Of a DNA stretch of 64,000 nucleotides, positions 9,617 through 50,771 are shown in pieces. The position numbers and the translations under genes were made by a program. Position 1 is the stretch's first letter; each line of letters starts with the position of its first letter. The notes under the pieces are model-generated. The model ran no database searches, was not told the origin of the DNA, and worked only from the letters and a program-made list of their open reading frames with translations. This DNA comes from Candidatus Omnitrophota bacterium (GTDB taxonomy: Bacteria; Omnitrophota; Gorgyraeia; Gygaellales; Profunditerraquicolaceae): NCBI GenBank assembly GCA_963805065.1, contig CAWDSS010000012.1, forward strand, positions 44,174 to 108,173, given 5' to 3'.

Positions 9617-9621
9617 TTGTT

Positions 9622-9656
9622 CGACTATCCTATTCTATTTGGGTCAATGGTCAATT
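9622..9656. repeat. heptanucleotide tandem array, GACTAT/GTCAAT family (degenerate, 5 units)
   Basis: CGACTAT CCTATTC TATTTGG GTCAATG GTCAATT, between the ppdK stop and the sigma-factor start. Confidence 0.55.
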
Positions 9657-9658
9657 TT

Positions 9659-12408: not shown

Positions 12409-12450
12409 TACTTTTAAAACCCTCCTTTTTCGATTATGATAGAGACCCAG

Positions 12451-12520
12451 GTCTATAGTCGATAGTCTATAGCCAATAGTAAAAACAAAAACCATCGGCC
12501 ATTGACCATAGACTATTGAC
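12451..12520. repeat. heptanucleotide tandem array, GTCTATA/TATTGAC family (10 in-phase units forming an inverted repeat)
   Basis: GTCTATA GTCGATA GTCTATA GCCAATA GTAAAAA CAAAAAC CATCGGC CATTGAC CATAGAC TATTGAC, between the glyQS stop and the ppdK start. Confidence 0.85.
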
Positions 12521-30816: not shown

Positions 30817-31089
30817 TTACTTTACTTTTTGCTTCATTTCTAAGCCGGCTTTAAAGACTACTACTTTTCTGGGAGGGACAGGGATTACTTGATTAGTGCG
30901 AGGATTTCTGCCTGTGCGGCTTTTTCTCTGCTTTATCTTAAAAACTCCGAAATTACGTAATTCAATCTTTTCCCCTCTTATTAAAGCTTCCACAATGCAA
31001 TCAAATGTTTTCTGCACGACCTTCTTTACGTCAATCTGCTTTATACCGGTTTCATCTGACACCTTTAAAATGATATCTTTTTTAGTCAT
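30817..31089 (-). CDS. hup: HU/IHF-family DNA-binding protein
   Basis: 90 aa with ELRNFGVFKIKQRKSRTGRNPRT. Confidence 0.85.
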   Translation of the reverse strand: MTKKDIILKVSDETGIKQIDVKKVVQKTFDCIVEALIRGEKIELRNFGVFKIKQRKSRTGRNPRTNQVIPVPPRKVVVFKAGLEMKQKVK

Positions 31090-31112
31090 TATGCCACCTC
31101 CGTTTGCTAACT

Positions 31113-31141
31113 ATAATAACACCAAAAATTTACGAAGTCAA
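31113..31141 (-). promoter_or_regulatory. hup sigma-70 promoter
   Basis: Minus strand reads TTGACT, a 17-nt spacer, then TATTAT. Confidence 0.6.
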
Positions 31142-31197
31142 GAAAAACTTTCATTAATGAAAGTTTTTCTTGATTTTGGGACAATGTGGCCCAAAAT
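31139..31197 (-). promoter_or_regulatory. paired palindromes upstream of and overlapping the hup -35 box (module shared with groESL)
   Basis: A perfect 34-nt palindrome, CAAGAAAAACTTTCATTAATGAAAGTTTTTCTTG, followed by ATTTTGGGACAATGTGGCCCAAAAT. Confidence 0.4.
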
Positions 31198-31263
31198 CTT
31201 ATTCAGCAATGAATTTTTCCCTTAGGGGACACCCTGCCGATTGATTTCAAGGGTGTCCCTGGA

Positions 31264-34200
31264 TTAAATAACCAGAGAAAGGCGTTCTTCGCCTAAAAGA
31301 TCCTCTATATCCTGGATTAATTGCTCGGATGGAGAAACATAGAAATTTTCTCCCACGACTATATGGGTCCTGGTTTTGGTAGGCGTGTCTAAATGAAGGT
31401 ATATGGGGATATTCCCGCGCGAGGAAGCCAATAATTCCTTTAAGCTTTCAAAAGTATTTTCCCTCACGCCGGAAATGTTTAAATTAAGGCCGGTAATTAG
31501 TTTATAAATTTCATCAAAGGGGAATAAATCATTAACCAGTATCTTAGGCGTGTCTTCCTTGAGATTGAGGTTCCCCCTGACCATGACAACTGTATTAGGC
31601 TGAATATAGCGGGATACCTTTTGATAAGCCCTTGGAAACACTAAGGCTTCTACAACACCTTCCAAATCTTCAAGTTTTAAAATAGCCATTTTTTCCTGTT
31701 TTGCGCGGGTGGTAGTCTGCTTAATCTTAGCTATTAATGCTACTAATTTGATTTCATCCTGGTCGTGATGCTGGAACAAGGTACTTGTAGAGGAAGAAAC
31801 AAAGCGTTTTAATTGCTTGGCGTAGCGTGCCAGGGGATGGCCAGTTATGTAAAAACCCAGCATATCTTTTTCAAAGGAAAGTAACTGTGGCTCAGGCCAT
31901 TCCTTTATCTGCGGAAGGCTGTTGGGAGTCTTTTTAAAACCATTCTGCTGGAATGCCTGGTCGAAAAAGGAAATCTGGCCCTTTGCTTTTTCTCTTTGCG
32001 TCTTGGAAGCGGATTCCAGTATTATGTCAAGGGAAGCAACCATCTGAGCCCTGGGCAGATTAAACCGGTCTAAGGCGCCGCATTTAATTAAAGCCTCCAA
32101 TACCTTTTTATTGGCAAGCCTAAGGTCGATATGCTGGCAGACCTCTTCCAGGGAAGCAAACTTTCCCATTTTCCTTGCCTCTACAATGGATTCAGCAGCA
32201 CCCCTTCCTACATTTTTTACCGCTAATAAGCCGAATCTGATGGTATTTTGGTCTTCAACTTTAAACAGGACTTCACTTTCATTAATATCCGGAGGTAACA
32301 CCTTAAGCCCCATCCTGCTTGTCTCGTTTACATATTCCACTATTTTATCAGTATTATCGCGCTCAGAAGTTAAAAGCGCAGTCATAAATTCCACCGGGAA
32401 ATTTGCTTTGAGATATGCCGTGCGGTAAGAAATTAAAGCATAGGCGGTCGAATGTGATTTATTAAAGCCATAACCGGAAAAATATTCTATAAGGTCGAAT
32501 ATTTTGTTAGCCGTATTCTGGCTGATATCGTTTTTGATGCAGCCGGAAACAAACTTGTTTCTTTGTTTCTCCATTACCTCAGGAATCTTTTTGCTCATTG
32601 CGCGCCGCAGCAAATCTGCTTGCGCTAAGCTAAAACCCGCGAGGCTGGAAGCAATTTGCATAATCTGTTCCTGATAAACCATGATCCCGTAAGTTTCTTT
32701 TAGCACTACTTCCAGCTTTTTATGGTCGTATTTTATGGGCACGCGGTTGTGCTTACGCTGCATAAAATCATCCAACATGCCTGAACCAATAGGCCCCGGC
32801 CGATACAAAGCCAATAGAGCGATTAGATCCTCAAATCGGCTGGGTTCAAGCTTCTTTAATAAATCGCGCATGCCTGAACTTTCCACCTGAAATACCCCCA
32901 TGGTTTGTGAAGAAGCTAAAAGTTTATAGGTAGTCGGGTCATCCAGGGTCAGACTTTCAATATCAACCAGTTTATTCTGCGTTTGTTTAATCAGTTTCAG
33001 AGTCTCGCTGATAACAGTCAGTGTCCGTAACCCCAAGAAATCTACTTTCAGTAAGCCGATCTTTTCCAAAACTCCCATGCTAAAGCCTGTAGTCACCTGG
33101 TCGTCGCTGGTCTTAAACAGAGGCATGTAGTTATTAAGGGGTTTATCTGCTATAACTACTCCTGCGGCATGAACTGAGGCATGGCGGTTAAGGCCTTCCA
33201 GCATAAAGCCCGTATCAATAAGTTTTTTTACCTGCTCGTCGTTTTTGTACAAGTTATTCAATTCGGTTTCGCTCTCCAGCGCATTTTTCAGGGTAATCGA
33301 CGGGTCAGGAGGTATCATCTTGGCAATTCTGTCAACATCTGCATAACTCATCGCCATGACTCTTCCCACATCCCTGATAACTGCGCGCGCCTGCATTGTC
33401 CCGAAAGTAATAATCTGCGCAACGTTTTCCTGCCCGTATTTTTTCGTGACGTAATCAATTACTTCCTGCCTTCTTTCGTAACAAAAATCAATATCTATAT
33501 CGGGTAAACCTAAACGCTCAGGGTTAAGGAACCTTTCAAATAACAGGCCGTATTTTAAAGGATCGATGTCTGTAATGCCTAAAAGATAGCTCACTAAGCT
33601 TCCTGCTGCTGAGCCGCGGCCAGGGCCAACGGGAATTCCCTGGCTCTTGGCATAATGTATAAAATCCCAGACAATCAAAAAGTAACTTACAAATCCCATT
33701 TCCTTAATTATTTTTAATTCATGCTTTAAACGTTCTTCTATGGCAGGAACGGTATTCTCGAATCTTACCTTAAGCCCTTTATCGCAAAGTTGTTTTAAAA
33801 ATTCTTCTTTGTTTTGGCCGTCAGGCGGCTCATATTTAGGCAAATGAATCTTGGAAAAATCTAACTCCAAATTACAACGCTCTGCGATTTTTAATGTATT
33901 AGTTAGGGCTTCCGGTGTTTCTTTAAACAGCTCTTTCATTTCCTGCGGGGATTTAAAATAAAATTCATCGGTTTGAAAACGCATGCGGTTGGGGTCATCC
34001 AGCGTAGTTTGTGTCTGGATACACAGAAGCGCTTCGTGGCTAGCAGCCCTATCTTTGGTAAGGTAATGCACGTCGTTGGTTGCCACAAGAGGTATATTCA
34101 ATTCTTTGGATATTTTGATTAATCCCTCATTTACGATTTTTTGTTCAGGGATGAGATTTTCCTGAATCTCCAGGTAAAAATTATCCTTTCCGAAAATATT

Positions 34201-34758: not shown

Positions 34759-36300
34759 TTATTCCCATTCAATAGTAGCAGGAGGCTTGGATGAAATATC
34801 GTAGACTACGCGGTTTACTCCTTTGACTTCGTTGATAATGCGATTGGAAATTTTCTCTAATAATTCATAAGGAAGCTTGACCCAGTCCGCAGTCATTCCG
34901 TCAAAGCTGGTAACGCAGCGTAAAGCCACTACATTCTCATAAGTCCTCTCATCACCCATTATACCAACACTTTTAATGGGAAGCAATATCGCAAATGACT
35001 GCCAAATTTGTTCATAAAGCCCGGCGTTTCTGATTTCCTCAATTACCCTGCGGTCTACTTCGCGTAATAATTCCAGGCGTTCTTTAGTGATTTCGCCGAT
35101 TATCCTGATAGCCAGCCCCGGGCCGGGGAAAGGCTGACGGTGAATTATGGCTTCAGGCAAACCCAATTCTTTTCCAATTTGGCTGACCTCATCTTTGAAT
35201 AAATCACGCAAAGGCTCAATTAGTTTTAGTTTCATATGCGCTGGAAGCCCTCCTACATTATGATGGCTTTTTATGCGTTTGCTGGGAGCTCCCGATGGAG
35301 AAATAGACTCAATTACATCCGGATAAAGCGTGCCTTGTGCCAAGAATTTTACTTTTTTTACTTTGTTAGCTTCTTCTTCAAACACTTTTACAAATTCATC
35401 TCCGATAATCTTGCGTTTTTCTTCCGGATCAGTTACACCCTTGAGGCGATCCAGGAACCTCTTGCTTCTATCCACATAACCCAGGTTTAAATGATACATA
35501 TTCCTGAATACCTTTTTTATTTGCTGGGGCTCGTCTTTACGCAACAATCCATTATCTATAAAAATACTCCTTAAATTTCTTTTAATTGCCTTGTGCACTA
35601 ATAATGCTGCCACAGAAGAATCAACTCCGCCGCTTAATCCTAAAACAACTTTATCTTTGCCCACGGTTTTCTTTATTGTTTCTACCGACTCTTTGATAAA
35701 TGACTGCATAGTCCAGCGGCTAAGGCAACCGCAAATCTTAAACAGAAAGTTGCTTAAGATTTGATTGCCTCTTTCAGTATGGGTTACTTCGGGATGGAAT
35801 TGAACTGCATATATTTTTCTTTTATGCGCTGCCATGGCTGCAATAGGAGTATTCATGCTATGCGCAATTGTATGAAATCCGGGAGGCACTTTGGCTACAG
35901 AATCTCCATGGCTTTCCCAACAGGTAAAATTACCGGGAAGATGATTGAATAAGCCCTGGGTATCGTCAATAAACAATTCTGCCTTGCCATATTCGCGCTC
36001 TTTTGAATGCTTCACTCTTCCTCCCAGCATTTGAGCAACCGCTTGCATGCCGTAGCATATGCCTAATATGGGAATGCCGAGTTTAAAAATATTTTTATCC
36101 GGAAGAGGGCTTTTCTTTTCCACTACGGAAGCAGGGCCACCGGAAAGGATTAATCCTTTAGGAGCAAGTGCTGCAATTTCTTTTGCGGTTATATTGTAAG
36201 GAACAATTCTGGAGAAAACCTTGTTTTCTCTTACGCGCCTGGCAATTAACTGAGTATACTGTGAACCAAAATCCAAAATTAGAATTGTCTGTTTTGTCAT
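34759..36300 (-). CDS. guaA: GMP synthase (glutamine-hydrolysing)
   Basis: 513 aa with [16 protein letters not shown] and a C-terminus ending ATIEWE. Confidence 0.95.
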
Positions 36301-37457
36301 GTGCCCATTCCTACTTTTTGACCAACCTGGAATATTTTTCCTTCGGTTTGTATGGATGGCGCGATAATTATTTCTACGTCGTGCATTTCTTTTAAATTCA
36401 TCACCCCTAATGAGCCCATGGAGGTTTTTAAGGCGCCGACTAAATTCTGGGAGCCGTCATCAACTTTTGCCGGGCCGAACAATATTTCTTTTAAACTGCC
36501 GGTTGTGCCCACATATATGCGGGTCCCGCGCGGTAAATTCATATGGGAAGTAGCCATGCCCCAATGATAACCTCTGCCCGGAGCTTCTTTTGCGCGGGCA
36601 AAACTTGAACCAATCATTACCGCATCTGCTCCGCAGGCAAAGGCCTTGCAGATATCTCCACCGCGGTTCATGCCGCCGTCGGTAATTATAGCCACATATT
36701 TGCCCGTTCTTTTATAATGAAAATCGCGGGCTGAAGCTGCGTCAACAGTTGCAGTAACTTGCGGCACCCCTATTCCTAAAACCCCTCTTGTAGTGCAAGC
36801 AGCTCCCGGGCCAACGCCAATTAATAATCCGGCAGCACCTGTTTCCATGAGTTCAACAGTTGTTTCATAGGTAACGCAGTTACCGAGAATTACGGGAATT
36901 TTTGTGGATTTGCAGAATTTGAATAAATCCAGGCTTTTGTATTCTTTGGCGATATGTTTTGTGGTTGTAACTGTGGATTGCACCACAAACATATCTGCTC
37001 CGGCCTGAATTGCCAGCTTAGAAAATTTTTCTGCGTGCGCAGGAATGCAACTTACTACAGCAGTAGCTTTCTTTCTTTTAATTTCAGCAACGCGTTTTGT
37101 GATCAGGTTTTCTTTAACCGGTTTTGTGTATACTGACTGGATTAATTCTGTGGCTTTTTGCGGCGAGGCTTTGGAAATCTGCTCTAACACTGAATCGGGA
37201 TTTTCATAGCGGGTCTGGACCCCGTCAAGATTCAATACGGCTATACCACCCAGGCTTGACATCTCAATGGCAAATTTAACATCTACCACGCCATCCATAG
37301 CTGCGGCAAGTATGGGAACCTTGAATTTCTTTGCGTCAATTTCAAAGGTAGTATCAGCTTCATTGGGGTTTGCGGTTTGAGAACCGGGAACCAGTGCAAT
37401 CTCATCAAAACCATAACACCTGCGTGCGCGCCTGCCTATGCCTATCCACTCTGCCAT
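36297..37457 (-). CDS. IMP dehydrogenase-family protein, GuaB3-like (no CBS subdomain)
   Basis: 386 aa with [26 protein letters not shown] and the catalytic-loop-like [20 protein letters not shown]. It overlaps the guaA start by 4 nt. Confidence 0.75.
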
Positions 37458-37475
37458 TTTACTCTCCTGTAGATA

Positions 37476-37525
37476 GGGACTGTTCCCGCCAAAGCTATTC
37501 CAAAGCTTTTAAAGGGGACTGTCCC
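37476..37525 (-). promoter_or_regulatory. two near-identical palindromic boxes (GGGAC-N-GTCCC type) in the guaB3-guaA leader
   Basis: GGGACTGTTCCC at 37476-37487 and GGGGACTGTCCC at 37514-37525, lying between the predicted promoter and the start codon. Confidence 0.4.
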
Positions 37526-37605
37526 TAAATATTATAAGTAGTTATTCTACAATAGGTTACGACTTTCGATGTATTTTAACGAGTTAACCAAAACGAAGAT
37601 AGTAA

Positions 37606-37634
37606 ATTTTACACTACCTCGCTCTAATTGTCAA
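37606..37634 (-). promoter_or_regulatory. sigma-70-type promoter for guaB3-guaA
   Basis: Minus strand reads TTGACA, a 17-nt spacer, then TAAAAT. Confidence 0.5.
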
Positions 37635-37680
37635 TACATATTTTTGGGTGATAATTTATACCTTAGCCTTCTATTTTGCT

Positions 37681-38077
37681 GCGGGTATTTGTTCGCGTGC
37701 TGAAATTTTTTGCCGTCTGCTTCGGTTTACGCCTCACTTTCGGTCATGGTGACTTACGCTTAAGCGCTGCCTTTCGTTCGGCGTAATTCCTCGCAGACTA
37801 TCATATTTAAACGAGGTGCCAAAAAATTTCTAATGCACGCTCACAAATCCCTCCGCAAAAATCTATACTGAAGAATGAATTTGATGAGCTTTGGAACACT
37901 AAGTGACTTTTTGTGGGTGACGAGGCTTAATTTGAGCAGCACATACGAAAATTTGAGCGGGCACGGTTTGCTGCTATTCCAGAGTATCCAAGAGCGAAAA
38001 TTTTCGCTGAGCGAAGAATTTCCACGCTGGGGAAATTCGAGCGCTGCTGCGAAAACAAGCCTCGGCAGGACCCACAA
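37681..38077. ncRNA. unclassified, highly structured non-coding region (two rod-like imperfect hairpins of about 170 nt each); candidate ncRNA(s) or decayed inverted-repeat element
   Basis: Hairpin A (37681-37856): GCGGGTATTTGTTCGCGTGCTGAAATTTTTTG pairs with CAAAAAATTTCTAATGCACGCTCACAAATCCCTCCGC, and there are inner helices GTCTGC/GCAGAC and TTTACGCC/GGCGTAA. Hairpin B (37911-38077): TTGTGGGT..GAGGCTT pairs with AAGCCTC..ACCCACAA and encloses three sub-hairpins. The ORFs called on both strands here overlap each other, which is typical of non-coding sequence. Confidence 0.3.
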
Positions 38078-38103
38078 AAACCGCTCAAGCGATTAAGTAT
38101 TGC

Positions 38104-38132
38104 AAAAAGGGCGAAGATTTTAGCCTTCGCCC
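38104..38132 (-). terminator. rho-independent terminator of the giant gene
   Basis: Minus strand reads GGGCGAAGG-loop-CTTCGCCC followed by TTTTT, about 36 nt after the stop codon. Confidence 0.75.
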
Positions 38133-38167
38133 TTCCCCACCAGCCGTTTTCTAATCTTACACTTCTC

Positions 38168-41100
38168 TTAATTTTTCAAATAAGCTAATTCTTTGTTCTT
38201 TGCTGCATTATCCTGCTCTTCTCCCACTTTAGGAAAAGTGTTGAATATTACGTTTAAGTTATTTATCGGCTGCATCCTGATAATCTGAAAGGTAAAACCT
38301 TCTAAGTTACTCAGGTCAATTGGAGGCATTTTCACAGGTACTGAATTAGGAGCAGCTGCAACATCAATCGCACCTAAATCAATACCGCCTGGGTTATCGG
38401 CAATCTCAGAAGTCACCGCTGAGCTGGCAGCCATGAAAACATTATTTATAGTTATATTTCCTTTGCTTTCACGACTATCGTGAAGTGATTTGCTATAAAC
38501 TTTATGGCATTCGTAGGATAGTACAACATCCCGGCCTTGTCTACTAAATGATGTTGTAGTATGTAAGCGGCTTTCATCTTGCCATGTTGAATTATCTTGA
38601 TAATAACCAGACTGATATTGTTTTATTGCATCTTGATCTTTGTTTATAACACTCCTTACAAAGTTTTCAAATTGCGTTAGAATGCTCTTTATATTTTCCT
38701 TTATTAATGGAGCATAAATTATATCTCTCAATTCCTTCTGCAGTTGCTTCTTTGCTTGAGCAATTTGTGTAGTAACGGCTTCAGTTATCTCTGAGCTGGC
38801 CATATTATTAAGTAAGCTTGCTTCAATTTCACGCACACTCTGGCTCTGGCTTAGGGTAAATTTAACCTCCATTCCTTCCTTGAAGAAAAATCCTGTTTTC
38901 CAAATATTGTGCACTAATGCACGTAGGTTGGGTTTAGATGAACTATCGGAGAAATCATCGGTATAATGTGCAAGAAGATTCACGCCTCTAACGTTTTGTC
39001 TCCTCAGAGGATCCAGGGTGATCATATATTCTTTTCCGCCGATATCCTTTATTGTGATTGTGTTCAAGATTGCTTTTTTTGTAATGTGGCCCTCAGAGTC
39101 TTCCCCTGCCTCTAATGCATCATATATCAGCTGTGCAAGTTCCTTTACTGCCTTGCTGGATTGTGTTTCTATCGGCGAGCCGGCGGCTGCTAATCTTTCA
39201 GTATTAGATAATGGTGCTGCTTCGAGCAATTTAGTTATGTCTTCCTGGCGTGCCTGATTAAGCATAAGTTGCCTTACTAAGTCCATTTCCTTGGTTGAAA
39301 AACTCCATTGGTTATCATAGCCAACAGGCGTAGTGTAAAGCGGCCCTGCAATCTGCTCAATCATATCGTCAAAAAGAATAGAGCCTGTACTTTGACCAGT
39401 GATGGTATCTTCCCAGCGATATCGCCCATTAACTTTATCCTTTTCGCTAAATATTTTGATGTCCTCGGGGAATTCCTTTGCAATCATGGAAAGATAAAGT
39501 TTTACAGTTTCCTGCGGGACATTCTGAGGCAATAAAAGACTGAGGTCAAACACAGAACCACCCTTAATTATAACGTTACCATCCAAATAAGCAGTAGGTG
39601 TACGCATGGCTGTAAAAAGTGCATTTACCATGAGATGTTGAGCTACTCCTTTTGCCGCTCCGGTTGCCTTAGGGCTTAAATGGCCCTCGGGGTTTTCTTT
39701 ATCTTTACCGGTATACATATGAAAGGTTGGCCCTATTTCTGTAATGATCATAGTTCCAAATCCAGCTGCTAATTCCGATAGCGCTAGAGTAACATAGCTA
39801 TCACCATTAGTAGAACAAGAAGTTGTACTTATATACGATGCTCCTTTGGACTTGGTATAAGGCATTTTCTGTAAATAATCGCCTAGTTCATTAAAAGGAG
39901 CTCCCATAGGCACAAGCAATTTCTTAGGAATCTGGGCTTTTATATAAATGAATTGTTCGGCTCTTCCTTGCGCTAAACGATCTTTTTCTACCTGGGTTAA
40001 TATTTCCTTAAGGCGTGCTAATTCTTCCGGAGCGTCTCCTAATTTATCACTAGAGAAACTTAAATTATTTTTAGCTACAAAATCCCAAAGCGGAGTTCCA
40101 TCAAGCTTGATTTTCTTCTGCTTAAATAACTCGGAAATCTGTTGGTCGCCAATTTCTACTCCACCAGGTGTAGCATCAATAATAATCCCAAAGTAGTATG
40201 GTTTGCCGTCTTTTTCGTAAACAATCATCGGGCGAGGTATATTATCCAAATTTGTGCCTTCCAGTTTAAACGCTTCCACTAAACCCTGGTTAAACTGTCC
40301 TACATCTACATACCAGATAATCCCTACTTTCTTACCATCAAGAAGCACATTAACCGGATAAACGCTGGGAATTTGTGAAGGAGTTTGGAAATCAAGTTGT
40401 GCATTAAGCAATTCATTTCCTGGTTCAAAAGTCAGGCGATTAGCAGCTAAAAGATCGGTAACTTTCACTGATTTCCCATCACTTGTAACCAAACTCACAC
40501 CTGAACTTTTAACCTGCGGATCCTGAAAAATATCTTGCTTGGTTTTATTTACAGCAGTGGCAAATTTTTCTTCTGGAGTATTACCTTCAAGACTTCTAGT
40601 CCTTACTAAGAATCTACCGATAAAATTGGGATCCTTGTTATTATTAATGTTATATCTTAAGGTATAAACAACAGTAATGCTTCCAATCTCACCAGTTCCA
40701 TCAATGGCAATAAGAGGATTCTTCGAAGGAAGATCGGTCTTAGGATTATCATTTTTAAGATGTTTAAAACTAGCAATAAAATTATCCGTGCTTAATATCC
40801 CGGCAAGCTGAAGTATATCATAACACCAAATTCCTCCCTCATTAGCATAGGTAGAATATACTCTGGATAAATTATCTTTCTCAGCCTGTGATAGCGCTAT
40901 GCCTTTGCTTGCTAGATGACGAATTATGGCATCTGCATTTGCTCCATTTAGCTCTATAGCATCGCTGTTTCTCAATAGCTGGTTCAGTTTTGTGGCGTAC
41001 TTACCAATCTGAGCTCTTGCAGGTTCCATAACACGAGCTTCTTTGAAATGTTCCTGCGATAATTTTAGCAAATACCTATAAGTTCTGGCATAAAATCCAG

Positions 41101-44100
41101 TAAGGGCATCTGTAAATTTGCTTCCATCAGGAGCTTTTGATGCTAAAATTGATAAAATATACATAGGCCTAGATATTTGTTGAAGAGTGTTAAGGCTTGC
41201 CTCAAATTTTTCCACATTCTTTCCAAAGCCAGGAGTTTTTGCTTCCTGGTCAGCCTTTGAAATATAACCTCCTAAAAGTTTATCAATTTCAATACCTTCT
41301 GGATTGACAAGAGATTGCGCGTCTAAATTACTAACTGCTTTAGCTAACAAGTCCATACGAGAAAAATCGCCCTTGTTAAAATCTGCCAGAAAAAGCTGGT
41401 AATATTTACGTAGGACATCAAAGGATGCTTTATGGGTTGAAGCATCTATTTCTTCCTTAGGCCAGACAACCGGCTCCATCAATGCCGAAAGGGCATCGGC
41501 CAAATCAGGTAATTGTTCCTTAAGATCACTCTTAATTTTCGCATTAAGAGCATCAATTGCCGCATAATCTCGTTTCACCCACAAAGGAATGAATACCAGT
41601 ATCACGTTGTCTGGAGACTTAATGGCAATCAATGATGCTAAATCTACGCCTGCAGCACCGATTTTGCCAACATCCAACTTATGGGATTTTGTTTCTGCTG
41701 TGGTAACTCCCACGCCCTCTTCTTTTAAATAGCCAGCGAGATATTCCTGAAATGCTCCACCAACTGCTTTAGCGTCTTTAGCAGCAGCTATTTTTGCGCG
41801 TAATTCATCAGGAAGGTTTTCCGGCATAAAAACCATAGGAATATAGGCACCGCCGTAAAATATATCTGACCTGCCTGCAAATGGACCCTCAGCTATTACT
41901 CTAAACTTAGTTCCTAAATCTGAGGTATAAAGATCGAGTGCTGCGGCCCTATTAGCATCGTTTCCATTAATAGAGGTATCTTCATGCCTGGTAGCAGGCG
42001 TAGGTAATAACACTCCTTCGGGAAACGCATTTTTGACTGCTGAGTAAATATTAAAAAGCGACTTCTCGGTGTCCATTTTAAGCACTGCTCTTACAGGAGG
42101 AAGATTAGCAGCTCCTTTGGTTAAAGCAGTTAATAAAGAACCGCCGCCTGTAGAAAAATTTACTTTATCACTGAGTTTCCATGCTGGATTTATGGTTTTC
42201 ATTTCCTCAACAACTATATCTAGTGCATTTTTCATATCTCCACCAGCAAAAAATACTGCCACGCCACGCTCTGCCGCTGCATTAGCTGCTACCACTAAGG
42301 CGATAGTTCCTTTTTTTGATCCCCAATCCTTATCAAAAACTCCTGCTCCGCCATTTAAAATCAAGCCATCGCCTTCTTGTAGGCTGTCTATATGATCAAC
42401 ATCTTCTTTAATAGCTGTGTTACCAATATCTATCTGCTCATCATCCAAAGTTAAATCTTCTAGCCTTACGCTTCCTTCCTTCTCTTTAACAAAGAAATCT
42501 TTGGGGGTAATAAGGTAAACTCCGGACTCTCCTATTTTCTTTATTCCGACAGCTACATCTTTCTCTTCTTTTGCTAAAGGCATCTTAGACTTCCCCATCT
42601 GGAAACCTTTCTCCCTAAGATAGGGATTAACCTGTGCACCTACTAACATAATCGTTCCACCTGATTCAGCTATAGGCTTGGTTAGCTCTCCAAAATTCTT
42701 ATATTTATCAAATTTAGCACCTCCAGCCATAAGAGATAATTTTCCAGTCACTTTTCCTTGAAAATCAAGTACTGCCTGGACATTTTCAGCTAAATTATAA
42801 CCTGCAGCACGATTTTCCTCAGGGAAAAGCCAAGCCATTTCCATAGAAGCTTCTTCGCCGCGATGTGCTTTATCAAATGCCTCGTTAAGATAGACCAACT
42901 TATCAACGGATCTATCTGTTAAACCAATTATTCTTTCTTCAAAAGCCTGCCTCTTTCCAGCAATATCAGATTTTTCTGACCCGCTGGCTTTTTTATCCGC
43001 CTTTAGTTGCTCTTCAGGATAGAGCCGTATATTATCAAATATAAACATATACCTTCTATTGCTCGCTAATTTAGCCTCTCGAATAACTTTCCCTGCTTCC
43101 GATAAATCATAAGGAAGTAAAACAATTCCAATGTCTTTATTGAGGCCGTTTTTATATAGAATCTCCTCGGCTTTAGCTACTGTAGGAGCTAAGTTAAAGT
43201 CTTCAAACCTTTTCTGTATATCGCTCTCATCTGCCGGCCTTCCTAAATGAGTCATAACATACAGGTATTGAAGCCCCAGGTCATCGAATGCGCTTACTAT
43301 GGTTTTAACAGACTGATCAATTCGTTCGGTTTTATTTTGCTCAAGGTCCTTGCGCGCTATATTCCAATCAAGCACAGCCATGCCTGAATCAATGCCGTTT
43401 TTGGCAACTACACCTTTAAGGTCACCTACTGTCCTTACTTCTAGCGGAGAACCAGAACTCTCTTCTCCAGCTTTATCTAATCGTGCGATTTTATCCGTAG
43501 GACTTCCGGCTGATGCTATAGCTACATCCACCCCGGTTAAAATTTTTCCACTTAAATCATCATTTTGAATAGCAGATGAAGATCTCTCTTCAAATTTTGC
43601 AAACTGGCTGATGGGCAATATAGCTCCGCCAGAGAAGTATTGTCTTTTGATGTTTCTGTGTGTGGCTGGGTCAAAGTCTGACTTTACGTAGTTGTATACG
43701 CCTTTTTTGAAGGCTTCCACATAGAGGTTGTAAATCTTATCCTTAGCTGACTTATCAGCTAAGTCTATGCCTTGTATTTTGCCTTTATCTATATAGTATG
43801 AATAGATGGATTCCTTGAATTTCTTCTTAAACCAAGTAGCTAAGATTAGGGATGAGTAAATTTGCCTTAAAGTGGCAAAGTTCTTGCCTGAATTAACTTC
43901 AGCATTGATTTTAGGCAGGATTAGCTCACGCATGACCTTAGATGAGGCTTCATCTACTTTATTAATCAGGTCTTCCTGCATATTTTGCTTTTTGCTCTGG
44001 ATATCTGACAGATTGTTCTTTAGGGCTAGGTAATCCTTATCCAGCATGGTTTTTAAGCTAGCTTCTGCTACTACGGCAAAGTTGCCATTTTCATGAACCA

Positions 44101-44665
44101 CTGCCTTATCAGGCATAATCCAGATTTTGTTAAAGGTATTGACCGGTAGCTTGGTAGTATGGGCTATACGTTGCACTTCCTGGTAGGTTTTCTGCCAATA
44201 GTCTTTACCAGTGTCGCTTTCAGGATAGGTTAAGGAGGCTGAGATTTGTTTTAAGATGTAGTCCTGTGAAAGTAGATCTTTACCTAAGTCAGTTTCAGAG
44301 AGTGCCTGGGTAATCATTTTATCCTTTTCATAAGGAGACATATTTACCCAAAGTTCACTTTCCGGTATGGTTAAGCCAGCTAAGAAGTATTTAATCAGCT
44401 GGGCAGCTTCTTCTTGGCTTACCTTGCCCTGGTCTGCTGTATCAATGATAAACTGCATCTTTAAGGGGTCAGAGGGGTCAAATTTCATACCTTTTAACAG
44501 CGGGAAGGAATAAGAACCGGATAATTGCACAAATTGAGTAGGCGCGGGTAGAGTTATGGAGCCTGCGCGCACTGAAGCAGGTAAGACCATGTTACTGATG
44601 AAAGATATTGCTACAACTAAACAAGCGATTCTTGAAACGAGTTTGTTTTTCCTGAATCTACTCAT
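38168..44665 (-). CDS. giant (2165 aa) signal-anchored multidomain protein containing phosphoglycerate-kinase-like and GAPDH-like modules
   Basis: Signal/anchor: MSRFRKNKLVSRIACLVVAISFISNMVLPASVRA|GS. aa ~35-350: conserved-looking N-domain of unknown function. aa ~410-865, PGK motifs: VMTHLGRP, FDNIRLYPEE, LNEAFDKAHRGEEAS, GGAKFDKY, IDIGN, NGGAGVFD, AGGD, STGGGS. aa ~1317-1805, GAPDH motifs: IAIDGTGEIGS, STTSCSTN (Cys1617), TFHMYT, KATGAAKGV, MRTPT, GYDNQWSFS. C-terminal tail: NPGGIDLGAIDV...FTFQIIRMQPINNL. RBS AAGGAGG. Confidence 0.8.
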   Translation of the reverse strand: MSRFRKNKLVSRIACLVVAISFISNMVLPASVRAGSITLPAPTQFVQLSGSYSFPLLKGMKFDPSDPLKMQFIIDTADQGKVSQEEAAQLIKYFLAGLTIPESELWVNMSPYEKDKMITQALSETDLGKDLLSQDYILKQISASLTYPESDTGKDYWQKTYQEVQRIAHTTKLPVNTFNKIWIMPDKAVVHENGNFAVVAEASLKTMLDKDYLALKNNLSDIQSKKQNMQEDLINKVDEASSKVMRELILPKINAEVNSGKNFATLRQIYSSLILATWFKKKFKESIYSYYIDKGKIQGIDLADKSAKDKIYNLYVEAFKKGVYNYVKSDFDPATHRNIKRQYFSGGAILPISQFAKFEERSSSAIQNDDLSGKILTGVDVAIASAGSPTDKIARLDKAGEESSGSPLEVRTVGDLKGVVAKNGIDSGMAVLDWNIARKDLEQNKTERIDQSVKTIVSAFDDLGLQYLYVMTHLGRPADESDIQKRFEDFNLAPTVAKAEEILYKNGLNKDIGIVLLPYDLSEAGKVIREAKLASNRRYMFIFDNIRLYPEEQLKADKKASGSEKSDIAGKRQAFEERIIGLTDRSVDKLVYLNEAFDKAHRGEEASMEMAWLFPEENRAAGYNLAENVQAVLDFQGKVTGKLSLMAGGAKFDKYKNFGELTKPIAESGGTIMLVGAQVNPYLREKGFQMGKSKMPLAKEEKDVAVGIKKIGESGVYLITPKDFFVKEKEGSVRLEDLTLDDEQIDIGNTAIKEDVDHIDSLQEGDGLILNGGAGVFDKDWGSKKGTIALVVAANAAAERGVAVFFAGGDMKNALDIVVEEMKTINPAWKLSDKVNFSTGGGSLLTALTKGAANLPPVRAVLKMDTEKSLFNIYSAVKNAFPEGVLLPTPATRHEDTSINGNDANRAAALDLYTSDLGTKFRVIAEGPFAGRSDIFYGGAYIPMVFMPENLPDELRAKIAAAKDAKAVGGAFQEYLAGYLKEEGVGVTTAETKSHKLDVGKIGAAGVDLASLIAIKSPDNVILVFIPLWVKRDYAAIDALNAKIKSDLKEQLPDLADALSALMEPVVWPKEEIDASTHKASFDVLRKYYQLFLADFNKGDFSRMDLLAKAVSNLDAQSLVNPEGIEIDKLLGGYISKADQEAKTPGFGKNVEKFEASLNTLQQISRPMYILSILASKAPDGSKFTDALTGFYARTYRYLLKLSQEHFKEARVMEPARAQIGKYATKLNQLLRNSDAIELNGANADAIIRHLASKGIALSQAEKDNLSRVYSTYANEGGIWCYDILQLAGILSTDNFIASFKHLKNDNPKTDLPSKNPLIAIDGTGEIGSITVVYTLRYNINNNKDPNFIGRFLVRTRSLEGNTPEEKFATAVNKTKQDIFQDPQVKSSGVSLVTSDGKSVKVTDLLAANRLTFEPGNELLNAQLDFQTPSQIPSVYPVNVLLDGKKVGIIWYVDVGQFNQGLVEAFKLEGTNLDNIPRPMIVYEKDGKPYYFGIIIDATPGGVEIGDQQISELFKQKKIKLDGTPLWDFVAKNNLSFSSDKLGDAPEELARLKEILTQVEKDRLAQGRAEQFIYIKAQIPKKLLVPMGAPFNELGDYLQKMPYTKSKGASYISTTSCSTNGDSYVTLALSELAAGFGTMIITEIGPTFHMYTGKDKENPEGHLSPKATGAAKGVAQHLMVNALFTAMRTPTAYLDGNVIIKGGSVFDLSLLLPQNVPQETVKLYLSMIAKEFPEDIKIFSEKDKVNGRYRWEDTITGQSTGSILFDDMIEQIAGPLYTTPVGYDNQWSFSTKEMDLVRQLMLNQARQEDITKLLEAAPLSNTERLAAAGSPIETQSSKAVKELAQLIYDALEAGEDSEGHITKKAILNTITIKDIGGKEYMITLDPLRRQNVRGVNLLAHYTDDFSDSSSKPNLRALVHNIWKTGFFFKEGMEVKFTLSQSQSVREIEASLLNNMASSEITEAVTTQIAQAKKQLQKELRDIIYAPLIKENIKSILTQFENFVRSVINKDQDAIKQYQSGYYQDNSTWQDESRLHTTTSFSRQGRDVVLSYECHKVYSKSLHDSRESKGNITINNVFMAASSAVTSEIADNPGGIDLGAIDVAAAPNSVPVKMPPIDLSNLEGFTFQIIRMQPINNLNVIFNTFPKVGEEQDNAAKNKELAYLKN

Positions 44666-44683
44666 TTTAAATCCTCCTTGTTA

Positions 44684-44790
44684 TAGATCCTTGACACGAA
44701 TTCGACAACATTTGTCTATGAACCTTACGTGTCAAGGATTATTTCGCCCAAATAACTTACGTTGCACTTCGTGCTTCCGTAAGTTATGGG
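44684..44790 (-). repeat. two-hairpin leader element, copy 2 (immediately upstream of the giant gene RBS)
   Basis: ATCCTTGACACG-29 nt-CGTGTCAAGGAT (44687-44739) plus a second hairpin, CCCAAATAACTTACG...CGTAAGTTATGGG. The core matches the copy at 27371-27474 at roughly 80 percent by eye. Confidence 0.7.
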
Positions 44791-44794
44791 CTCA

Positions 44795-44860
44795 ATAAAA
44801 AAGCCACGATTGTTAATGAACTTTTTCAAGCTCAATTAAGAACCGTGGCAAATTCTTAAT
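44795..44860 (-). promoter_or_regulatory. terminator/antiterminator-like alternative hairpins inside the giant-gene leader (candidate attenuator or riboswitch expression platform)
   Basis: Minus strand reads GCCACGGTTCTTAAT...ATTAACAATCGTGGC followed by TTTTTTATT, which is terminator-like. The upstream ATTAAGAA (complement of 44853-44860) can instead pair with the TTCTTAAT of the terminator 5' arm. Confidence 0.4.
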
Positions 44861-44922
44861 CTACCTCGATTATGGTAAACTTTTAAAAAGACTTTTGAAA
44901 GCGTTTTCTAAATTCTTTAGTA

Positions 44923-45011: not shown

Positions 45012-45042
45012 AAAAAGGGCGAAGATTTGAATTTCTCCGCCC
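45012..45042 (-). terminator. rho-independent terminator of groES-groEL
   Basis: Minus strand reads GGGCGGAGA-loop-TCTTCGCCC followed by TTTTTATTT. Confidence 0.7.
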
Positions 45043-45050
45043 TTCTTAAA

Positions 45051-45078: not shown

Positions 45079-46720
45079 TTAATACATCCCTCCGCCCATT
45101 CCTCCCATTCCACCTCCGGGTGCCATAGGCATAGGAGCTTCTTTTTCAGGCTTATCAGTTATTAACGCTTCAGTAGTTAATAACAACGCAGCGATACTGG
45201 AAGCATTTTGCAAAGCTGAACGAGTAACCTTGGTAGGATCAATTACTCCTGCATCAATCATGTCAACATAGGCATCTTGGGTGACATCATAACCGATGTT
45301 GGTTTTTTCCTGCTTAACGCGCTGCACAACCACAGAGCCTTCAAGGCCGGCATTATTTGCCAAATGCCTGATTGGCTCTTCTAATGCACGCTTTACAATA
45401 TCAACACCGATTTTTTCATCGCCTTCCAGCTTCAGCTTATCTAATGAAGGAATTGTGCGTAATAATCCTACACCGCCGCCAGGAATAATTCCTTCCTCAA
45501 CTGCAGCGCGGGTTGCATGAAGGGCATCTTCTACTCTGGCTTTCTTCTCTTTCATTTCTGTTTCAGTAGCAGCGCCGACATTTATCACGGCTACTCCACC
45601 GGCAAGTTTAGCCAGCCTTTCCTGGAGTTTCTCTTTATCATAATCTGAATCAGTATTCTTCAATCTGCTTTCTTAATTTGAGCGATCCGGCCATTGATGG
45701 CGACTGATTTTCCTGCTCCTTCAACTATGGTCGTATTTTCTTTGTCAACTTTAATTCTTTTGGCGCGGCCTAAATCATCAATATCAACATTTTCAAGCTT
45801 TACGCCTAAATCTTCGGTAATTGCCTTGCCACCGGTAAGAATGGCGATATCATCTAGCATAGCCTTACGCCTGTCGCCGTATCCAGGAGCTTTAACTGCG
45901 CAAGCTGTAAATGTGCCGCGGATTTTATTTACCACTAAAGTTGCCAATGCCTCACCCTCAACTTCTTCGGCAATAATCAATAAGCGGCTTTGCCGGTGCG
46001 GGCAATTTTCTCTAATAGCGGTAATACATCTTTTAGAGAAGAAATCTTTTTCTCATAGATGAGTATATAAGGCTCCTCTAAAATCACTTCCATTCTTTCT
46101 GCATCTGTAACAAAATAGGGAGAAAGATATCCTTGGTCAAACTGCATACCTTCTACAACTTCCAGGGTGGTAGCGGTTGATTTAGCTTCTTCAACGGTGA
46201 TTACTCCGTCTTTACCGACTTTATCCATTGCCTCTGCGATTAAATCTCCGATAGCAGTATCGCAGTTGGCAGCAATTGAAGCAACCTGGGCAACTTCTTT
46301 TTTATCTTTGATAGGGGTGGAAAGCTTCTTTAACTCTTCAAAAACTTTTTCCACTGCTTTTTCAATCCCGCGCTTTAATGCCATGGGGTTTGCACCGGCA
46401 GTAACGTTCTTTAAACCTTCGCGATAAATCGCTTCGGCTAAAATTGTAGCTGTAGTTGTACCATCGCCTGCGATATCAGAAGTTTTTTCCGCGACTTCCT
46501 TAACCATCTGAGCGCCCATATTTTCAAAAGGGTCCTCAAGGTCAATTTCCTTTGCCACTGTGACGCCGTCTTTGGTTATTGTGGGTGAGCCGAATTTCTT
46601 ATCAATCACGACATTGCGGCCTTTGGGGCCTAATGTCACCTTGACTGCCGCAGCTAATTGCTCGACACCGCTTAAAATCTTTCTGCGGCCTTCATCTTTG
46701 AATAATAATTGCTTTGCCAT
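45079..46720 (-). pseudogene. groL: chaperonin GroEL, interrupted by two single-base frameshifts as sequenced
   Basis: Three collinear fragments: [19 protein letters not shown]...; [21 protein letters not shown]...; and ...[23 protein letters not shown]...[11 protein letters not shown]. The breaks are at about 45982 (AA, expected AAA) and about 45664. Confidence 0.9.
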
Positions 46721-46755: not shown

Positions 46756-47046
46756 TTATTTAATGATTGCTAAGATGTCTTCTTCGCGCATGATTAACAA
46801 CTCATCGCCATCTTTGGTGGTAATTTCATTTCCCGAATATTTCCCGTATAATACCTTATCTCCAACCTTTACTTCCGGCGCCTGCACAGAGCCATTCTCC
46901 AAAACCTTACCTTTGCCCACTGCTACGACTTTGCCCTCTTGCGGCTTTTCTTTGGCAGTATCAGGCAAGACTATGCCGCCCTTTGTCTTTGTTTCTGCTT
47001 CTAAGGGCTTAATTACTACTCTGTCTCCTAATGGTTTTATGTCCAT
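46756..47046 (-). CDS. groS: co-chaperonin GroES
   Basis: [44 protein letters not shown].... The start at 47046 has a GGAGG-type RBS; the track ORF start at 47184 is an upstream extension through the promoter. Confidence 0.9.
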
Positions 47047-47075
47047 TCCTACACCTCCCTTAAATTGTTTATTGT

Positions 47076-47102
47076 TTAGCACTCTGTTTTCCAGAGTGCT
47101 AA
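47076..47102 (-). promoter_or_regulatory. CIRCE operator (HrcA binding site)
   Basis: A perfect TTAGCACTC-N9-GAGTGCTAA lying between the -10 box and the groES RBS. Confidence 0.9.
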
Positions 47103-47129
47103 TTATAAAATAAAAAAAATCTTTGTCAA
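47102..47129 (-). promoter_or_regulatory. groESL sigma-70 promoter
   Basis: Minus strand reads TTGACA, a 16-nt spacer, then TATAAT, abutting CIRCE. Confidence 0.65.
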
Positions 47130-47142
47130 GAAGTTTTTCATA

Positions 47143-47200
47143 TTTTGTTTTCATTAATGAAAGCAAAATATGATGCCGTGGCAATGTGCCACGGCATCAT
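47143..47200 (-). promoter_or_regulatory. paired palindromes upstream of the groESL promoter (module shared with hup)
   Basis: TTTTGTTTTCATTAATGAAAGCAAAA and ATGATGCCGTGGCAATGTGCCACGGCATCAT. Compare 31139-31197. Confidence 0.4.
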
Positions 47201-47207
47201 AAGTAGT

Positions 47208-47240
47208 AAAAAAAGCCTCTTTTTTAAAAAGAGGCTTTTT
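47208..47240 (-). terminator. bidirectional rho-independent terminator
   Basis: AAAAAAAGCCTCTTTTTTAAAAAGAGGCTTTTT. Confidence 0.7.
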
Positions 47241-47262
47241 AAATTTAATACTTAATTAACTG

Positions 47263-47757
47263 TTATTGGCCTATTAGGTTTAGCCTTTGCGGAGTATTTA
47301 CAGAGTTTGCGGAATAGCCAACCGTGTTTGCCTTTTCAACGCTGAGCTTTGGAGCTTTCAAAGTTCCGGTACCTGAAACTGATGTAGAACCCTGCTTGAC
47401 ACTCGTAGCTACACTCCTTATCTTTACGGCATACGTATTGCCTGTCGTAGAAGCGCCATATGCTGATTTTTTCGACGAGGTTGTTCCAACCTGATAATTC
47501 ATACTGGCAACTTCATTCCTGCTTGCGCTTATGTTTCCGTTATTTTCCAGGTTTTGAGTGCTTTTCTGCTCTGCCTGAACCTTAAATGCAGATATATTCT
47601 TTACACTTCCGGTTTGAACTTGCTTAACATCATCAGACTTAATCTTATCAGGCTTAATCTTATCAATTTTAATTTTCTGGATGTCATCTGCATAAGCATT
47701 TAGAGCAAAACCTGTTACAAAACACATTGCTAAAACTATCATTAATATTTTTTTCAA
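47263..47757 (-). CDS. secreted low-complexity protein, function unknown
   Basis: 164 aa with a signal peptide (MKKILMIVLAMCFVTGFALNAYA), a KIKIDKIKPDKIKSD repeat, and a Ser/Thr-rich composition. Confidence 0.45.
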   Translation of the reverse strand: MKKILMIVLAMCFVTGFALNAYADDIQKIKIDKIKPDKIKSDDVKQVQTGSVKNISAFKVQAEQKSTQNLENNGNISASRNEVASMNYQVGTTSSKKSAYGASTTGNTYAVKIRSVATSVKQGSTSVSGTGTLKAPKLSVEKANTVGYSANSVNTPQRLNLIGQ

Positions 47758-47939: not shown

Positions 47940-48695
47940 TTAAGTAAAAGATAGCGCTTTCTTTACGTAAATCAGCTGCAATCCCTTTAATGTCAAATCA
48001 TTATCCACTCTTGTAAATTTACAATAATCACGCATTAATCCGATATCGCCGCCCGTACCGATAATTTTGGCGTCCTTACCTATTATATGCCTAATCTTGG
48101 CTGTAAGGCTATCTGAAAGCATAGCAAAGCCATAAATTATGCCGCTTAACATACTGTTTTTTGTATCTGCGCCGATTAATCCCTTAGGTTGGGATAATTT
48201 TATTTTAGGTAATAATGCGGTCCTGTCAGCTAACGCATCCAAAGCGATTTGCAAACCAGGCAAAATCAAACCGCCGAGGTATTCTTTTTTTCGGGAAATT
48301 ACATCGAAGGTAATGGCTGTTCCAAAATCAATTACTATCAAGGGAGCGCCAAAGAACATGGTTCCCGCATAAGCATTAACTAGTCGATCCTGACCGACTT
48401 GCTTAGGTTGCCGATAGAGGTTTTTAATTGGTACTAACACGTCCTTACCTATTATTATCGGCTTTTTCCCTAATAATTTACTTAAATCTTTGTTTAGGGC
48501 TGCTGTTTTTTTAGGAACAACGCTACAGATTATCGCGTTATCTATGTTGTGTTTATTAAATATCTTTTTGAGGTATTTAAGGCATCTGTTTTGCTTTGTG
48601 GGAATGCTATAGCGTTTTAAAATCCGCCTGCCTTTAAATACGCCTAAGCTGATATTGGTATTACCTATGTCTATGGCTAATAACATGTTTTTCAT
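47940..48695 (-). CDS. coaX: type III pantothenate kinase
   Basis: 251 aa with MLLAIDIGNTNISLGVF, VIDFGTAITFD and GTGG. Confidence 0.85.
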   Translation of the reverse strand: MKNMLLAIDIGNTNISLGVFKGRRILKRYSIPTKQNRCLKYLKKIFNKHNIDNAIICSVVPKKTAALNKDLSKLLGKKPIIIGKDVLVPIKNLYRQPKQVGQDRLVNAYAGTMFFGAPLIVIDFGTAITFDVISRKKEYLGGLILPGLQIALDALADRTALLPKIKLSQPKGLIGADTKNSMLSGIIYGFAMLSDSLTAKIRHIIGKDAKIIGTGGDIGLMRDYCKFTRVDNDLTLKGLQLIYVKKALSFT

Positions 48696-48703
48696 AGAAT
48701 AAA

Positions 48704-48731
48704 GTCAAAACGTAAAAGTCAAAAGGCAAAA
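48704..48731. repeat. heptanucleotide tandem array, A-rich family (4 units)
   Basis: GTCAAAA CGTAAAA GTCAAAA GGCAAAA, directly upstream of the coaX start. Confidence 0.85.
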
Positions 48732-48739
48732 CTGTGAAT

Positions 48740-48800
48740 AAATGGGGACGTTTCTATTTTTCTGCTGCCCCAGAGACGTAAAAAATAGAAACGTCCCCAT

Positions 48801-48803
<3 letters not shown>
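48740..48803. repeat. 64-bp palindromic element, copy 3 (after uvrB)
   Basis: AAATGGGGACGTTTCTATTTTT, a loop, then AAAAATAGAAACGTCCCCATTT. Confidence 0.8.

Positions 48804-50771
<1,968 letters not shown>

Follow-up and report, generated by a model that had tools for sequence, protein, structure and literature searches.

What occupies the long non-coding gap beside guaB3 in a 64,000-nt stretch of Candidatus Omnitrophota DNA (the window)? The gap spans 710 nt (37458-38167) between guaB3 and an open reading frame (ORF) of 2165 aa, the giant gene, and a preliminary description of the sequence had proposed that the block of secondary structure within it is a novel structured RNA, or two, or else a decayed mobile element. 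We find that the block is real, is non-coding and matches no known RNA family, but the RNA proposal lacks key supports, and the window and ~750 kb of related DNA yielded no copies of the kind left by a miniature inverted-repeat transposable element (MITE). The block holds two hairpins, H1 and H2. Our comparisons indicate that H2 is not a chance fold, since its homologs carry compensatory base-pair changes, and that H2-type hairpins are a small, previously undescribed family at one gene junction.

The gap is the true intergenic maximum of the window, as had been claimed; the longer ORF-free stretches are frameshifted genes. Its ORFs, found on both strands, are all 78 aa or shorter and none reaches a Pfam curated cut-off, which agrees with the stated lack of coding potential. 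The sole Pfam match, of a 73-aa ORF to DUF1664, scores 18.5 bits against a cut-off of 34.6, and the ORFs of 73 and 78 aa were rejected as genes on this ground. A coding remnant of groEL, groES or another gene was rejected as well, as tblastn gave no signal there, and no tandem repeats were found in the gap. The 469-nt block folds more stably than all 100 of its dinucleotide shuffles on both strands, with a minimum free energy (MFE) of -146 kcal/mol on the plus strand (z-score -3.4) and -151 kcal/mol on the minus strand (z -5.9). The two consecutive rods that had been described reappear at 37676-37862 (plus-strand z -4.8, minus-strand z -6.1) and 37905-38083 (-5.0 and -5.4, respectively), and the sub-hairpins AGCGAAAATTTTCGCT and GAATTTCC-N7-GGAAATTC, together with the direct repeat named there, are present in the sequence. 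The block was also said to be GC-rich; a slight excess stands (0.42-0.48 against a window mean of 0.41; other gaps span 0.29-0.46). By a GC-corrected sliding MFE scan the block ranks about 17th in the window and is thus not its most structured spot.

We compared the window with about 130 loci of GuaB3 relatives (70-93% protein identity, ~750 kb of DNA; given L numbers below), nearly all of them from Omnitrophota metagenome-assembled genomes and metagenomes. The homolog search that the preliminary description had suggested, run with nhmmer, revealed homology of H2 to L050 and L051, and further H2-type members were located in L001, L130 and, inverted relative to guaB3, L115 (Table 1); L057 is a duplicate of L001 with the same hairpin. 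A covariance model, R1, was built from the members in L001, L130, L115 and L051 with the window left out. Run over the window, it picks out 38082-37906 (minus strand; 25.6 bits, E=3.9e-4), allowing for an insertion of 107 nt at the apex, and found no further match in the window or the ~750 kb of related loci. The model reads the two strands differently, scoring the L001 member at 85.6 versus 36.1 bits.

Members share a characteristic base. It consists of a helix P1 (TTTWGYGGG/CCCRCWAAA, 9-10 bp), a UCC bulge on the 5' side, a UG/CA step and then a second helix, P2, usually with a 1x1 pyrimidine-pyrimidine mismatch below P2. The sequence of P2 differs in every member and its pairing is always kept. 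On its 5' side the H2 base comprises P1 UUUUUGUGGG (38080-38071), the UCC bulge (38070-38068), the UG step (38067-38066), the C of a C/U mismatch (38065) and the P2 strand CGAGGCUU (38064-38057), and perfect 11-nt inverted-repeat arms (37908-37918/38070-38080) lie at its foot. Over the 17 basal pairs of a four-sequence alignment, 97% of cells are paired and 6 of the 17 pairs have changed on both sides; none of 500 shuffles attains the observed covariation score, and slid controls have 38-49% of cells paired. The covariation that the preliminary description asked about is present in this small alignment.

Above this base the members diverge in size, from 77 nt in L001 and L130 through a three-way junction in L051 to 177 nt and a multibranched form in the window. 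H2 itself folds at -64 to -67 kcal/mol (z -5.0 to -5.4). Its apex contains the sub-hairpins GAAUUUCC-N7-GGAAAUUC and AGCGAAAAUUUUCGCU, and the motif CGCTC occurs there four times on the sense strand. In L050 the expanded form has a more distant relative, which has the 14-mer AACCGTGCCCGCTC in common with H2, and between the apical sub-hairpin of H2 and its counterpart in L050 (GTTTTGCC-CCTGCGA-GGCAAAAC) there are three compensatory pairs.

Each of the five members is found 12-270 nt 5' of the -35 element of the conserved guaB3 promoter and 3' of the upstream gene's terminator except in L130, where the hairpin stands between the groEL stop codon and the terminator. The base segments (15 nt on the 5' side, 13 nt on the 3' side) are near-identical in L001, L130 and L115 within a spacer that is otherwise unalignable, which suggests that some factor recognises the base, and the same combination of bulge and mismatch recurs in five lineages. 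Apart from L001/L057, the carriers are adjacent in the leaf order of a neighbour-joining tree of the first 750 nt of guaB3, a pattern suggestive of vertical inheritance with losses. Over about 70 distinct loci, 30-125 nt usually separate the upstream stop codon from the -35, and the separation is longest in the window (533 nt), L050 (503 nt), L115 (469 nt), L051 (315 nt) and L001 (283 nt). The same spacer holds unrelated hairpins in other relatives, for example three in L126. Two papers on Omnitrophota giant genes make no mention of hairpins or palindromes.

On the minus strand, H1 has an MFE of -68 to -70 kcal/mol (z -6.1). Its 3' arm is about 75% identical to the first 112 nt of L049, a contig that ends inside the element, and a second covariance model, R2, found only the window and L049 among the related loci. 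H1 is missing from L051 and L055, both of which are nearer to the window by guaB3.

We wondered whether the hairpins act as RNA or as DNA. Both are located upstream of the conserved guaB3 promoter (37634-37606), hence outside the span from transcription start to start codon, and a guaB3 leader or purine riboswitch is ruled out. They were likewise rejected as intrinsic terminators, as no U-tract follows either; on both strands their flanks show 5' T-runs pairing with 3' A-runs, and a terminator scan within H2 returned just one weak 5-bp site. No conserved promoter or terminator frames H1 or H2, and in five of six loci the hairpins come after a strong terminator without room for a promoter, L130 being the exception. 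The preliminary description had envisaged a plus-strand transcript from a promoter back-to-back with that of guaB3. The promoter-like match exists, but its -35 is just the conserved, palindromic -35 region of guaB3 in reverse complement, and no counterpart of its -10 was seen in L051 and L049, whose sequences were read by eye. The match is probably not a working promoter, and conservation gives the proposed transcript no support.

The pairing itself is nearly blind to strand. G-U pairs make up 0-5% of all pairs, so that pairing is almost purely Watson-Crick; the differences between sense and antisense MFE scatter near zero over eight hairpins; and on a skeleton restricted to Watson-Crick pairs, mismatches of the G-U and A-C types number 2 versus 1. 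An MFE-based count of 16 G-U to 0 A-C was set aside, as a strand-neutral recount did not reproduce it. As far as the sequences tell, this evidence does not favour a dedicated RNA gene and has the character expected of a palindrome under constraint on both strands; with the base so well preserved, pure neutrality is hard to accept.

Collectively, these data lead us, tentatively and as the likeliest of the explanations considered, to a model in which the block consists of two vertically inherited, fast-evolving, locus-anchored palindromic spacer modules, possibly insulators resembling repetitive extragenic palindromic (REP) sequences and bacterial interspersed mosaic elements (BIMEs). The modules would occupy the spacer between the terminator of the upstream gene and the guaB3 promoter, and H2 would have descended vertically at the guaB3 junction in a subclade of Omnitrophota. 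Constraint would act on the hairpin itself, given that orientation and side of the terminator vary and that pairing is Watson-Crick on both strands; the constrained form might be a cruciform in DNA, a hairpin of single-stranded DNA or a read-through RNA, its conserved base probably recognised by a protein. Punctuation of the REP/BIME type may then buffer the guaB3-guaA-dnaE promoter from the upstream unit (groES-groEL, hereafter groESL, or the giant gene), whether it arrests or stabilises transcripts that read through or takes up supercoiling. As to how H2 grew, we infer local duplication of terminator-like sub-hairpins combined with template switching.

REP sequences and BIMEs have been proposed to protect mRNA 3' ends, to punctuate transcription and to bind gyrase; REPs measure about 35 nt and the related REPINs about 70-110 nt, number from tens to hundreds per genome and are mobilised by the RAYT transposase. 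Like the REP, BIME and REPIN elements of Enterobacteria and Pseudomonas, the H2 family comprises intergenic imperfect palindromes at gene ends, with a conserved asymmetry (here the UCC bulge and the 1x1 mismatch) that sets an orientation, both orientations being found; it too may stand before or after terminators, often clustered, and pairs on both strands. By this analogy an insulating or 3'-end-protecting role is plausible. Unlike REPs and REPINs, the hairpins measure 77-180 nt and were seen at a single locus across the ~800 kb examined.

Several observations weigh against the model of locus-anchored spacer modules. The insulator role is a proposal by analogy, and REP/BIME elements are multi-copy while the H2-type family is apparently confined to one locus. 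The closest relative, L052/L055 (93% GuaB3 protein identity), has a 79-nt spacer with a terminator only and neither H1 nor H2, and the L134 group has a degenerate hairpin, so that whatever function exists is dispensable. With only five or six members in the family, the covariation statistics are weak, and H1 has a single, partial homolog. Finally, a basal helix and bulge that stay conserved in sequence while guaB3 nucleotide identity is about 77-84% would also fit a protein-recognised RNA.

An alternative that we judge unlikely is that H2, H1 or both are novel small structured RNA (sRNA) genes with a protein-binding, bulged basal helix and a variable apex. Such RNAs could arise on the guaB3-sense strand, through read-through or processing of the upstream gene's 3' untranslated region (UTR), or on the plus strand, driven by the divergent promoter. 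The conserved sequence, bulge and mismatch of the base and the covarying helices suit an sRNA, as do minus-strand z-scores that in the window are somewhat better than those of the plus strand, the strand specificity of the TCGCTC repeats described below (10 sense versus 2 antisense), the 10/12 promoter match on the plus strand and the layout of L130, where a hairpin in the groEL 3' UTR ahead of the terminator is typical of 3'-UTR-derived sRNAs. Set against this are the lack of a conserved promoter ahead of the hairpins, the strong terminator that precedes them in five of six loci, the missing U-tracts, the inverted member in L115, the near-total Watson-Crick pairing without strand bias across homologs, the absence of both hairpins from the closest relative and the want of any Rfam match. 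A fuller version, to which we also give a low probability, holds that the H2-type hairpin and perhaps H1 are an unknown structured non-coding RNA of an Omnitrophota subclade, with the UCC-bulged base as a protein platform; its apex would expand from 77 to 177 nt, and it would be made from the groESL or giant-gene transcript by read-through or processing. Among known RNAs, 6S RNA and other rod-shaped sRNAs (RF00013) are likewise rods of about 180 nt closed by their own 5' and 3' ends and interrupted by internal loops; unlike 6S RNA, the hairpin gives no covariance-model match at E<=10 and has no conserved central bubble, no promoter or terminator and hardly any G-U pairs, and one homolog is inverted. 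The location, directly downstream of a highly expressed gene, also recalls 3'-UTR-derived sRNAs and tandem terminator hairpins, the more so as the L130 hairpin stands ahead of the terminator and the sub-hairpins of H2 resemble the local terminator; unlike them, the hairpin in the window and four other loci comes after a strong terminator and has no U-tract.

Could the hairpins be unselected? A rearrangement-prone spacer might gain quasi-palindromes as neutral by-products of template switching and local inverted duplication, an origin that would account for their patchiness in close relatives, their quick sequence turnover, their very variable length and the unrelated hairpins in the spacers of other lineages. 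Correction of palindromes at the DNA level yields Watson-Crick-only pairing, and the junction is indeed rearranged, the giant gene lying between groEL and guaB3 unlike in most relatives. Yet template switching keeps pairing and not sequence, and the 15-nt and 13-nt base segments are near-identical in L001, L130 and L115, with the geometry of bulge and mismatch repeated in five lineages; we rate neutrality as quite unlikely. A shade more doubtful is an origin of H1 and H2 from non-autonomous transposable elements, either MITEs or REPIN-like doublets, that landed in the gap and have since decayed. Terminal complementarity, long in both hairpins, a size of 170-180 nt, the inverted member, the variable position relative to the terminator and the break of the L049 contig inside H1 would fit, and dispersed hairpin repeats of other families do exist in these genomes. 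Target-site duplications had been named as a check: the flanks of H2 show no direct repeat, but a 4-nt TCTA stands on both sides of H1 (37670-37673/37862-37865), a weak signal that may be chance. The copy-number test proposed for a MITE came out negative, as neither H1 nor H2 recurs in the 64-kb window or the ~750 kb of related loci, a search that left the source genome's other contigs outside, and we rejected a high-copy MITE or REP over the ~800 kb examined. BLAST of the block against plasmid and phage collections gave no match either; searching viral contigs with a gapped H2-base pattern yielded 31 matches, a number estimated to be compatible with chance, and R1 scored none of them as a member. 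Other hairpin families are seen to be dispersed, so a dispersed H1/H2 family would have been detectable. The members all sit at one junction, and their carriers stand together in guaB3 leaf order. Compared with MITEs such as Correia elements, Nezha and RUP, the hairpins agree in size range, in long hairpin-forming terminal complementarity, in being non-coding and intergenic and in occasional flips of orientation; unlike MITEs, they were not found in multiple copies and are inherited vertically at one junction, and H2 has no target-site duplication and a multibranched interior in place of two mirrored arms.

The dispersed families include a 36-nt hairpin, ATAACTTAYG...CRTAAGTTAT, which occupies 44752-44787 in the window; six other distinct loci carry it too, at unrelated intergenic sites (Table 1). 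The L126 copy has two more hairpins next to it, and one of these contains part of its ATAACTTA motif, a half-site that also occurs in the conserved guaB3 5' UTR. The ATAACTTAYG hairpin has the appearance of either a REP-like dispersed repeat or a palindromic operator.

A short motif, TCGCTC, is concentrated in the expanded spacers. It occurs 10 times in guaB3 sense versus 0.39 expected (about 25-fold; p ~1e-11) and twice in antisense, often as TTCGCTCRAA, in the spacers of the window, L050, L051, L115 and the L132/L134 group, the last without a good hairpin. One could thus read the spacer as regulatory DNA for guaB3-guaA, in which TCGCTC(R)AA repeats and the palindromic base bind a transcription factor or nucleoid protein, and the enrichment, its strand specificity and its spread over five expanded spacers, including the hairpin-poor L132/L134 group, speak for it. 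We consider this improbable, the least likely of all the explanations: the motif is not general upstream of the promoter (14 sense matches within 150 nt over 84 loci, most of which lack it, which led us to reject a universal operator), its distance to the -35 varies from 35 to 460 nt, in the window H1 stands between the copies and the promoter, which are over 320 nt apart, and the spacers of most relatives are too short for such sites. TCGCTC can be likened to the 3' arm of the local terminator (CTTCGCCC; TTCGCCC), and a family of 14-nt repeats, D1, connects two H2 sub-hairpins with the terminator arm. Tentatively, TCGCTC may represent decayed duplicates of terminator-like hairpins, which would explain both its orientation bias and the apical growth of H2.

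If the model of locus-anchored spacer modules is right, the hairpins are a small undescribed family of palindromes in an uncultured phylum with compact genomes, and a case in which spacers between terminator and promoter grow by hairpin expansion while the base, probably recognised by a protein, is conserved. They mark a repeatedly rearranged junction, at which groEL lies beside guaB3 in most relatives and the giant gene does here. Models R1 and R2 let annotators label the elements without calling them RNA genes or MITEs; if transcribed, they would form a new sRNA family in Omnitrophota. No major open question is changed by the finding.

Table 1. Features of the guaB3 junction and of related loci; positions are those of the window unless a locus is named.
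Feature	Position	Strand or orientation	Details
guaB3 (GuaB3-type, IMPDH-related gene)	36297-37457	-	Pfam IMPDH 6e-50
guaB3 5' UTR	37458-37605	-	conserved blocks and a window-specific 54-nt hairpin insertion
54-nt hairpin insertion	37474-37527		TAGGGACAGTCCCC...GGGAACAGTCCCTA on sense strand; inverted repeat and alignment with L051, L052
guaB3-guaA promoter	37606-37634	-	TTGACA-17-TAAAAT; 11/12 consensus positions
Promoter-like match	37628-37655	+	TTGTCA-16-GATAAT; 10/12 match
H1	37679-37858	-	180-nt rod-like imperfect hairpin, 20-nt one-sided internal loop
H2	37906-38082	-	177-nt multibranched hairpin, expanded H2-type member; same orientation as guaB3
H2 basal module, 3' side	37908-37928	-	P2 AAGCCUCG, mismatch U, CA step, P1 CCCACAAAAA
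H2 apical expansion	37929-38056	-	absent from 77-nt family members
H2 basal module, 5' side	38057-38080	-	family alignments, RNAalifold, pair counts
Intrinsic terminator of 2165-aa ORF	38104-38134	-	GGGCGAAG-loop-CTTCGCCC, then T5
Giant gene, 2165-aa ORF	38168-44665	-	other border of gap
H2-type members	L001 1309-1385; L130 2088-2163; L051 3662-3758	guaB3 orientation	
H2-type member, inverted	L115 2270-2363	opposite strand to guaB3	
ATAACTTAYG hairpin sites	L069 1848; L072 306; L083 391; L085 273; L111 2442; L126 2827		33-38 nt

The elements that border the hairpins had been correctly identified beforehand. The terminator of the giant gene has a perfect 10-bp stem (38107-38116/38125-38134), an 8-nt loop and a T5 run on the minus strand; it is near-identical in L051, and a simple terminator scan of the window did not call it. 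Terminators of the GGGCGAAG/CTTCGCCC type also stand 3' of the upstream gene in L001, L020, L035 and L115, and a similar copy follows groEL in the window (45012-45045). This shared type reflects either co-duplication with insertion of the giant gene or a lineage-wide terminator consensus. The guaB3 promoter is kept widely, TTGACAA-N16-GTAAAAT being found in about 85 Omnitrophota loci out of the 112 sequences in which the guaB3 start was located.

Downstream of this promoter, the 54-nt hairpin insertion is confined to the window genome, and the distance from promoter to ATG is 148 nt versus about 80-95 nt in relatives; GGGGAC-type hairpins like this insertion were seen in L010 and L105. Across the 5' UTRs of about 70 loci, the block ATCCTTTC is conserved near the 5' end, where it could pair with the Shine-Dalgarno sequence, and a second block, TAACCnATTG-N-AATAAnTTA, lies immediately 5' of the ribosome-binding site. 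RNAalifold gave no consensus structure for this UTR, and scans of the window's UTR and of four relatives with Rfam had no match; the UTR may act as an uncharacterised leader or operator.

The preliminary description could not match the block to RNase P, tmRNA, signal recognition particle or 6S RNA, and the wider Rfam searches likewise gave no hit for it even at E<=10. With Rfam 15 the whole window yields two tRNAs only at the gathering score, the best score over 37300-38300 is isrK (19.8 bits versus a gathering score of 50), sitting on the terminator, and four homologous loci have no credible match. The GCGGG...CCCGC base bears a superficial likeness to the signal recognition particle RNA and to the tRNA acceptor stem, which we rejected as neither covariance model matches at E<=10. 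Elsewhere in the window, stronger-folding intergenic regions (47041-47340, 31051-31350, 44611-44910 and 48631-48870; GC-corrected z down to -7) carry several near-perfect hairpins in series, and the palindrome TTTCATTAATGAAA appears at ~47150 and again at ~31150.

The window, with 41% G+C, is a Candidatus Omnitrophota-like genome segment in which all plausible ORFs of at least 120 aa are on the minus strand; cumulative GC skew is monotonic and genes keep to one strand. By-eye comparison with consensus sequences for a replication origin, dif and parS showed no match. After guaB3 come guaA, with a 4-nt overlap also seen in other relatives in which both genes are called, and then dnaE; in L134-L138, 131 nt (2662-2792) separate guaB3 from guaA and hold a short tandem run in which AAAGTC is repeated. 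The pair groES-groEL immediately precedes guaB3 in most relatives; in the window both lie upstream of the giant ORF, so that the giant gene stands between groEL and guaB3, an arrangement shared with L051, L018, L029 and L134-L138, and it looks like an insertion at the groEL/guaB3 junction. Its single Pfam match is a phosphoglycerate kinase domain (aa 433-849, E 8e-32), an odd find in a 2165-aa protein, and its C-terminus diverges fast, with 91 aa alignable with L051.

The exact GuaB3 protein of the window is absent from the database and its 90% cluster has one member, so there are no strain-level variants to compare. Among the P0015 contigs, seven are identical across the spacer, which gives no information on microdiversity, and the eighth has only 37 nt upstream of the gene. 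Several essential genes of the window are split across frames: groEL (45139-46720) matches a relative's GroEL in three consecutive frames, and the genes for pyruvate phosphate dikinase (~9659-12495) and a sigma-70-like factor (8804-9658) each consist of several ORF fragments, which suggests either an indel-prone assembly, possibly of long reads, or real pseudogenes.

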